Part shown: positions 8,034 through 10,176 of the stretch, piece after piece | Position numbering within the stretch: the first letter of the stretch is position 1 | Layout: every line of letters starts with the position of its first letter | Virus record (IMG/VR): IMGVR_UViG_2648501437_000009 | Source of the DNA: a virus | Taxonomy: Duplodnaviria; Heunggongvirae; Uroviricota; Caudoviricetes | Strand: one strand, 5' to 3' | Length of the DNA: 10,176 nt | Notes under the pieces: model-generated | Seen by the model: only the letters and a program-made list of their open reading frames with translations | What the model was told of the DNA's origin: nothing | Databases searched by the model: none | Made by a program: the position numbers and the translations under genes

Positions 8034-10176
8034 ATGGCAGTAAAGATTTCAGGTGTACTGAAAGACGGTGCAGGTAAACCGATACAGAACTGCACAATCC
8101 AGCTGAAAGCAAAACGTAACAGCACCACGGTGGTGGTGAACACGGTGGCCTCAGAAAATCCGGATGAAGCCGGGCGTTACAGCATGGACGTTGAGTACGG
8201 TCAGTACAGCGTTATTCTGTTGGTGGAGGGATTCCCGCCGTCACATGCCGGGACCATCACCGTGTATGAAGACTCCCAACCCGGTACGCTGAATGATTTT
8301 CTTGGTGCCATGACGGAGGATGATGCCCGTCCGGAGGCACTGCGCCGTTTTGAACTGATGGTGGAAGAGGTGGCGCGTAACGCGTCCGCAGTGGCACAGA
8401 ACACGGCAGCCGCGAAGAAGTCAGCCAGCGATGCCGGCACATCAGCCCGTGAGGCGGCAACTCATGCAACCGATGCTGCAGGCTCAGCACGTGCCGCCAG
8501 CACGTCAGCCGGACAGGCCGCGTCGTCGGCTCAGTCAGCATCTTCCAGCGCAGGAACGGCATCAACAAAGGCCACTGAAGCATCAAAAAGTGCTGCCGCT
8601 GCAGAGTCTTCAAAAAGCGCGGCTGCCACCAGTGCCGGTGCCGCGTCAACAAGTGCCGGGCAGGCCTCAGCCAGTGCCACCGCCGCCGGAAAATCGGCAG
8701 AAAGCGCCGCCTCGTCCGCTTCAACAGCCACAACGAAGGCTGGCGAAGCCACTGAACAGGCCAGCGCAGCAGCGAGGTCTGCTTCCGCAGCGAAGACATC
8801 TGAGACGAATGCGAAAGCGTCGGAAACCCGTGCAGAATCCTCAAAAACGGCAGCCGCATCGTCCGCCAGTTCGGCGGCGTCATCGGCATCATCTGCGTCT
8901 GCTTCAAAAGATGAGGCGACCAGACAGGCGTCAGCAGCAAAGGGCAGCGCCACGACGGCATCCACGAAGGCGACAGAGGCAGCTGGCAGTGCGACGGCGG
9001 CAGCTCAGAGCAAAAGTACGGCGGAATCCGCGGCAACGCGCGCCGAGACAGCGGCAAAACGGGCAGAGGATATTGCATCCGCCGTGGCGCTTGAGGATGC
9101 AAGTACGACGAAAAAGGGGATAGTACAGCTCAGCAGTGCGACCAACAGCACTTCCGAGTCACTGGCGGCAACGCCAAAGGCAGTAAAAGCAGCCAATGAC
9201 AATGCTGAGAAACGTCTGCAGAAAGATCAGAACGGTGCGGATATCCCTGGCAAAGACACCTTTACGAAAAATATTGGTGCCTGCCGTGCCTTCGGTGGGT
9301 CAGTAAGCACAACAACAGGAAACTGGACGACTGCACAGTTTATCGAGTGGCTGGATTCTCAGGGAGCATTTAACCATCCATACTGGATGTGCAAGGGTTC
9401 CTGGTCTTATGGCAATAATAAAATCATTACTGATACTGGCTGCGGTAATATTCATCTCGCCGGAGCTGTCATTGAAGTAATGGGGATAAAGTCAGCGATG
9501 ACGATCCGCATTACCACACCGACCACCTCCACTGGTGGTGGAACAACTAACGCCCAGTTTACCTATATTAATCACGGAACAGATTATTCACCTGGCTGGC
9601 GAAGGGACTATAACTCCAGAAATAAGCCAACGGCATCAGAGATCGGGGCGTTACCGTCAGGTGGAACAGCAGTATCATCAGTTAATTTGTCTTCAAAAGG
9701 TCGGGTAACCGCGCTGACAGACAATACGCAGGGGGCAACAGGTCTTGAGTTATACGAGGTGTATAACAACGGATATCCAACAGCGTATGGAAATATCATT
9801 CACCTGAAAGGGATGACAGCCGTTGGCGAAGGTGAGTTACTCATCGGCTGGAGTGGTACAAGCGGTGCTCATGCTCCGGCATTTATTCGTTCACGACGGG
9901 ATACGACCGACGCAAACTGGTCGCCGTGGGCGCAGCTTTACACCTCGGCTCATCCTCCTGCAGAGTTTTATCCAGTCGGTGCACCAATCCCGTGGCCATC
10001 AGATACCGTTCCGTCTGGTTATGCCCTGATGCAGGGGCAGACTTTTGACAAATCTGCTTACCCGAAACTTGCAGTTGCTTATCCGTCAGGCGTTATTCCT
10101 GATATGCGTGGCTGGACGATTAAGGGCAAGCCCGGCAGTGGTCGTGCCGTATTGTCTCAGGAACAGGACGGCATTA
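8034..10176 (+). CDS. stf: Side tail fibre protein Stf (partial, 3' end beyond window)
   Basis: ATG at 8034 with GGGGTG upstream. I translated the frame by hand: open to the window end with no stop (missing from the ORF track because there is no stop in-window). N-terminus [60 protein letters not shown] matches the lambda Stf N-terminus from memory. Followed by a long Ala/Ser-rich tract, the [26 protein letters not shown] motif, and a distal [37 protein letters not shown] motif typical of enterobacterial phage tail-fibre C-terminal regions. Confidence 0.9.
8380..9080 (+). repeat. Degenerate Ala/Ser/Thr-rich low-complexity repeat tract within stf (fibre shaft)
   Basis: About 230 codons dominated by A, S, T, K, E in recurring short units (e.g. 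SAxSAxxASxSA, [21 protein letters not shown]). GC-rich and stop-poor in several frames on both strands, which generates the long overlapping shadow ORFs 8257..9102(-), 8531..8965(-) and 8431..9123(+). Confidence 0.6.

Follow-up and report, generated by a model that had tools for sequence, protein, structure and literature searches.

Probable modular make-up of the distal half of a Qin (stfQ)-type lambdoid prophage side tail fibre gene

Does the distal part of a lambdoid side tail fibre gene that departs in composition and sequence from the part before it represent an exchanged module, and is it this module that sets the host range? The question is raised by a stretch of 10,176 nucleotides of viral DNA (below, the window) that ends inside a stf gene, for which an initial annotation made from the letters alone had proposed a module switch near position 9230 and a horizontally exchanged host-range cassette beyond it. 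Our comparisons make it likely that this is the distal half of a Qin (stfQ)-type lambdoid prophage side tail fibre gene put together from independently exchangeable modules.

The stf gene, its surroundings and its domain order

The window is the whole of contig JHSO01000113.1 (10,176 bp; assembly GCA_001266005.1), so that stf (8034 to 10176 on the plus strand, 714 5' codons) is cut by the contig end and not by the choice of window; its frame translates without a stop codon from 8034 to the last base. The assembly probably broke off at 10176 within collar and needle sequence that is multi-copy in E. coli genomes, and many database homologues are ~1 kb contigs broken at the same flanks. Pfam matches identify a lambda-like tail block consisting of the 3' end of the tape-measure gene, homologues of M, L, K and I, then J (3821-7302), lom (7370-7969; PF06316) and stf, which lies directly 3' of J and lom in the order known from annotated phages and prophages. 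J is broken into three frames by single-base insertions at ~4585 and ~5399 relative to J of E. coli KCTC 2571 (GGCA[C]ATAC and GACGG[G]AAG), which point either to a defective prophage or to draft-assembly errors. Since J carries these two frameshifts, the prophage may be defective and its fibre never used.

A terminator-like hairpin follows lom (7996-8017, plus strand, 16 nt 5' of the stf ATG) and another one stands directly after J (7321-7340); because the hairpins directly follow these two genes, lom seems, like its lambda counterpart, to be an insert that is terminated separately. These are two of the three terminator-like sites in 7300-10176, a number not above that in shuffled sequence, and the third (10133-10149, within stf) is taken to be a chance occurrence. 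Searches for sigma-70 promoters across 7300-10176 found none, an Rfam scan of the whole window matched no family, and direct and inverted repeats inside stf did not go beyond chance-level 20-mers. Two short ORFs (9608-9799 on the minus strand and 9823-10029 on the plus strand) were dismissed for overlapping a well-supported gene.

The modules of stf follow each other on the plus strand in a clear order. The gene opens with a prophage tail fibre N-terminal domain (8034-8435; PF08400, E 2.5e-72, aa 1-134), which is predicted to attach the fibre to the tail, and continues with a low-complexity shaft rich in Ala, Ser and Thr (8376-9083; A 38%, S 23%) and a single Phage_fiber_2 repeat (9102-9224; PF03406, E 1e-21), present in one to three copies among relatives. 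The NGADIP linker (9231-9248), which is the left recombination junction, leads to a cassette of two knob modules: module A (9249-9671), of the type known from Mu S', P2 H and P1 Sv', and module B (9672-9953). The right junction and the remainder (9963-10176) comprise the collar and the first needle residues of a tip of the T4 gp37 / lambda Stf type. All peptides quoted in the initial annotation are found exactly in the stf translation, and the region after the junction is indeed rich in Gly, Thr, Asn and Trp as described there (Gly 13%, Thr 13%, Asn 7% and Trp 3% of cassette residues).

The C-terminal motif that had been said to recur in fibres of several enterobacterial phages and cryptic prophages does recur widely: the GAPIPW... 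motif corresponds to the Pfam Collar domain (PF07484, aa 649-696, E 3e-11), and 9963-10176 closely matches residues 28-96 of the T4 gp37 tip (2XGF, E 3e-33). T4 gp37 and lambda Stf have been placed in one receptor-binding protein family (PMC9659904). The expectation that the rest of stf and a tfa-like chaperone gene lie just beyond the window agrees with close relatives: in PhiR42_1, PhiR29_1 and the Qin-site prophage of KCTC 2571, stf runs ~290-310 codons further (966-1,025 aa in total), and in relatives it is followed by a tail fibre assembly gene (PF02413) and often then by a pinQ/pinR-type serine recombinase gene on the opposite strand. The last 214 residues of the KCTC 2571 fibre can be aligned over their full length with the T4 gp37 needle (2XGF, E 1.4e-87), with His-x-His motifs and the C-terminus NIAFNYIVRLA conserved and differences limited to the head, and a His-x-His needle with a head is present in all full-length relatives bearing the window-type cassette. 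One locus, L056, carries between a window-type stf and tfa an inserted 300-aa ORF (4356-5258; at the same place in L068) in which a Macro domain (PF01661, E 5.9e-19) is combined with a C-terminus bearing needle-like His motifs (GAHSHGSSIVIGAHTHTL).

Module boundaries and exchange

The proposed module switch in distal stf is borne out by sharp breakpoints relative to Rac-type stf. DNA homology to the Rac-type gene of PhiR34_1 ends at 9247-9255 and resumes at 9937-9972, being perfect from 9972 onward, which places the boundary within 25 nt of the position first suggested. The left breakpoint (~9248-9255) falls within the NGADIP-GKDTF linker, 35 codons past the junction peptide of the Phage_fiber_2 repeat, and the right one coincides with the start of the Collar domain at the YPVGAPIPW motif. 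Searched separately by megablast against phage records, 8034-9229 matches 246 of them and 9230-10176 only 23, 7 of these over full length and the others over no more than the last ~205 bases. Neither uniform composition along stf nor uniform identity to a single reference was seen: identity to E. coli KCTC 2571 is 93-98% in the N-terminal part and 88.7% at 9100-9249, steps up at 9250 to 99.3-100% (9250-9999), and is 95.3% thereafter. Upstream of the junction the window has a single Phage_fiber_2 repeat against two in KCTC 2571 and PhiR42_1, and compared with PhiR29_1 and PhiR34_1 its shaft is shorter by 105 codons (315 nt, in frame, at 8610-8645). Over its whole length, the window has no match above 96% among complete E. 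coli genomes or phage records.

How widely such segments are exchanged becomes apparent among 80 viral contigs fetched for sharing at least 96% identity with the window in the stf N-domain, 63 of them with a complete stf. A Phage_fiber_2 repeat and a collar are both present at 48 loci, which fall into 7 cassette types (10 loci with the window type), while other loci terminate in unrelated C-termini; several cassette types are chimeras of each other's halves. A near-identical N-domain is thus joined to at least 7 different cassettes, in agreement with the horizontal exchange that had been proposed.

The cassette itself combines modules with different relatives. Module A shares ~80% amino-acid identity with residues 178-334 of PDB entry 8JU3 (domain E 3e-70), which is the Mu(-) fibre protein S' (gp52) of Mori et al. 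2024 as cited in PMC11821841. By tblastn its identity is 80% to P2 H, ~74% to P1 Sv' and 72% to Mu Sv', but DNA identity to the Mu, P2 and P1 homologues is merely 72-77%, so the sharing of this module is old. Module B is 64% identical to aa 47-153 of P1 Sv' (also found in P1 Sv), where it sits upstream of module A, and the order of the two modules is therefore permuted in P1. It is also 55-61% identical to Stf of Gifsy-1/2 and 77% to Goslar, and its final 231 nt recur at 99.6% identity in the stfQ remnant of K-12 Qin. Pfam searches with modules A and B alone gave no family above threshold (Gp34_trimer appeared sub-threshold in one homologue, E 0.004, with 18 bits against a cut-off of 27), and a PDB sequence search with module B alone gave no match. 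In an AlphaFold2 monomer model of moderate confidence built from 36 homologues (mean pLDDT 68; ~80-90 in module A and 70-78 in module B), 8JU3 was the sole significant PDB fold match of the cassette (Foldseek E 8e-20, 254 columns, 48% identity), and module B has no solved close homologue; all other PDB matches had E > 0.06 and were treated as noise.

The left junction has a counterpart in Mu. The window is colinear with Mu S' from the Phage_fiber_2 repeat onward, minus a 32-residue gix-bearing stretch. Mu S' carries two NGADIP...F..N(I/L)G motifs, one on either side of gix (which encodes IQNLGLQE), and positions 9231-9290 of the window form one hybrid copy of this motif: to the left of NGADIP the window is nearer to Mu copy 1 (36/54 nt vs 29/54), and to the right it is nearer to Mu copy 2 (25/30 vs 14/30). 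The single hybrid motif would fit a loss, through unequal recombination, of the 32 residues that carry gix. Because the window motif is a hybrid of the two Mu copies, one boundary thus appears to serve both the site-specific inversion of Mu and the general recombination of lambdoid stf genes.

Cassette function, inversion and base composition

The label of host-range cassette for 9230-9968 is not supported by the comparisons. If this segment were itself the receptor-recognising part of the fibre, as its homologues in P2 H and in those parts of the Mu and P1 fibres that are variable and invertible (all of which set host range) and its greater rarity than the flanks among phage records might suggest, one would have to account for a cassette that is joined at 98-100% identity to at least 4 needle-head variants, and for one head type (tip type 1) that is shared by five cassette types. 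In a set of 43 fibres, the 7 cassette types are found in almost free combination with the 10 tip types. In addition, the distal end of the relatives is a complete needle and head of the T4 gp37 type, the part homologous to the gp37 head lies wholly downstream of the window, and module A likewise precedes more C-terminal domains in Mu S' and P2 H. We therefore regard a direct host-range role of the cassette as unlikely. Since cassette and tip types assort independently, the cassette (9249-9953) is read as a shaft module and is probably not the host-range tip; from the comparative data and the structure of T4 gp37 we infer that receptor specificity lies in the needle head beyond the window.

Taken together, these comparisons establish where the modules begin and end, what they are homologous to, and that cassette and tip assort independently when the N-domain is the same, and they suggest how such a fibre may work. 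The protein would be a trimeric fibre attached through its PF08400 domain, in which PF08400, the Ala/Ser shaft, the Phage_fiber_2 repeat, NGADIP, knobs A and B and the T4 gp37-type collar succeed one another, and which, going by full-length relatives, would continue from the collar into a His-x-His needle with a hypervariable head, with the Tfa chaperone gene next. The cassette would form two globular shaft knobs that fix length and geometry and are not the main receptor contact, and the gp37-like needle head would bind the receptor after Tfa-assisted folding. Homologous recombination may exchange the modules at short conserved linkers, with Phage_fiber_2/NGADIP serving on the left and the collar motif on the right, and with co-resident prophages and infecting phages as the probable partners. 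Previous experiments showed that lambda gains stf-tfa sequence from Qin and Rac by Red- or RecA-dependent recombination (~2e-6; PMC3945230), and engineered lambda-P2 Stf chimeras work (bioRxiv 10.1101/2022.09.30.509847).

A different role for the knobs can be derived from their relatives. Homologous modules of Mu, P2 and P1 sit in LPS-recognising fibres, so accessory binding by the knobs is possible by analogy, and A and B might form a second, lateral binding site for glycans or LPS that was inherited from those fibres. Such a bivalent Stf would bind LPS by its shaft knobs and a protein receptor by its T4 gp37-type tip, a scenario that we consider quite improbable. On a less radical reading, the gene would derive from a Mu-like invertible fibre, be fixed in the G(-) state and have arisen by unequal recombination between the NGADIP motifs flanking gix, and the loci L086 and L087 (see below) would then be surviving invertible relatives.

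Recombination sites near the cassette that could switch fibre tips, which the initial annotation had raised, were not found: neither in the window nor in relatives bearing the cassette is it flanked by a crossover site or inverted repeat. It is highly improbable that the cassette is one arm of a Pin/Gin-type invertase switch alternating fibre ends, even with pinQ/pinR-type genes directly past stf-tfa in several relatives and a Mu homologue of module A that begins 27 nt after gix. The crossover core AAACCNNGGTTT is absent from the window stf at up to 1 mismatch and from 84 of 88 loci, including relatives with the window-type cassette, in a search that detected Mu gix and P1 cixL as positive controls. 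No inverted repeats of 23 nt or more occur between stf and pin in the loci L001 and L004, and a second, inverted set of fibre end and chaperone was not found in the relatives, where tfa is followed by pin; with a gap of just ~100 nt between these two genes, an alternative Sv-U set would not fit in. PinQ of K-12 acts in trans on the P segment of e14 and not on adjacent DNA (PMC12529663). Given the missing core and repeats, the narrow gap and the trans-acting PinQ, the cassette does not belong to a local invertible switch. A point in favour of such a switch comes from L086 (8000-11156) and L087, in which a lambdoid stf is truly fused to a Mu-G-like invertible segment.

At these two loci, the N-terminal part of stf is 95% identical to that of the window and joined to ~3.1 kb of sequence with 93.7% identity to the G segment of Mu (Sv'-U'-U-Sv), with invertase-like ORFs adjoining. 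The fusion point is a 33-nt gix-like inverted repeat (94% complementary) right after which module A begins, and the arrangement gives the impression of a lambda-type fibre with a genuinely invertible end.

The drop in GC content from ~9230 that had first drawn attention to the distal part is real (0.63 to 0.50): GC is 0.632 at 8391-9100, 0.497 at 9230-9968 and 0.534 at 9969-10176, with a window mean of 0.536. This fall is mostly due to the unusual Ala/Ser-rich shaft upstream and not to an AT-rich insert. Ala and Ser make up 61% of residues in the upstream shaft stretch, and GC at codon position 2 goes from 0.79 there to 0.56 in the cassette, whereas GC3 changes from 0.546 (8034-9230) to 0.459 (9231-9968; Fisher p = 0.035), compared with a span of 0.35-0.73 among the other genes of the window. 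Because it is mainly driven by codon position 2 in the shaft, the GC shift is a weak sign of foreign origin. A stronger composition contrast than the one in stf was seen at the other end of the window, where the 3' part of the tape-measure gene and the next small gene (25-1774) have GC3 values of 0.39 and 0.35 against 0.57-0.73 elsewhere in the tail module. The reading that would reduce the composition change to an amino-acid effect in a vertically inherited gene, with no exchange at all, fits the preponderance of GC2 and the small change in GC3 (0.55 to 0.46) but is scarcely tenable, refuted as it is by evidence independent of composition: sharp breakpoints, at least 7 alternative cassette types behind near-identical N-domains, and the identity step to one reference.

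For a gene of exchangeable modules as preferred here, the exchangeable unit in the window is probably a shaft module, and host range should be predicted from the needle head and Tfa, both missing from the window. The Phage_fiber_2/NGADIP and YPVGAPIPW junctions are sensible splice points for engineered Stf chimeras, and the conserved linkers of stf-type genes are routine breakpoints of draft assemblies. Apart from correct annotation, the significance of the locus is small: the mosaic architecture is already known from several sequenced phages and ~15% of complete E. coli genomes (800 of 5,426 carry the cassette with a coverage of at least 80%), and mosaic tail fibres linking lambda, P2, Mu, P1 and T4 were described from ~1990 onward (references 71-74 in PMC3945230).

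Comparison with known tail fibres

The closest known counterpart is the Qin-type fibre (K-12 stfQ, with tfaQ-pinQ-ydfK), which has the same architecture and a cassette that is 98-99.9% identical in DNA. Intact copies are found in E. coli ATCC 8739 / KCTC 2571 (WP_000279128.1), and phages with this type include PhiR29_1, PhiR42_1, PhiR26_1, PhiR68_2, mEp460_ev081 and Salmonella phage SPF_0923. In K-12 MG1655, the truncated stf of Qin starts with the last 231 nt of the cassette (99.6%) and is followed by tfaQ-pinQ-ydfK; because this remnant holds the end of the cassette together with tfaQ-pinQ, we assign the window gene to the stfQ type. It differs from the Qin-type copies by lacking 105 shaft codons and the second Phage_fiber_2 repeat, and its N-terminal part is just 93-98% identical to theirs. 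Lambda Ur-Stf and Rac StfR (PhiR34_1) have the N-domain, the Ala/Ser shaft, Phage_fiber_2, NGADIP, the collar, the needle and a Tfa partner in common with it, but the cassette that these fibres carry between NGADIP and the collar is a different and longer one (~385 aa vs ~230 aa in the window).

More distant fibres share single parts. Mu S', P2 gpH and P1 S' have module A in common with the window (72-80% at the protein level by tblastn). Compared to Mu, the window lacks a gix/cix site together with the 32-aa stretch between the two NGADIP motifs, compared to Mu and P2 it has a distal end of the T4 gp37 collar/needle type in place of their own type of tip, and P1 carries modules A and B in the opposite order. 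The T4 gp37 tip (2XGF) has a near-identical collar, of which the window holds the collar and the first needle residues only; in the window's relatives the whole needle can be aligned with T4 gp37, and it is the head that varies among them.
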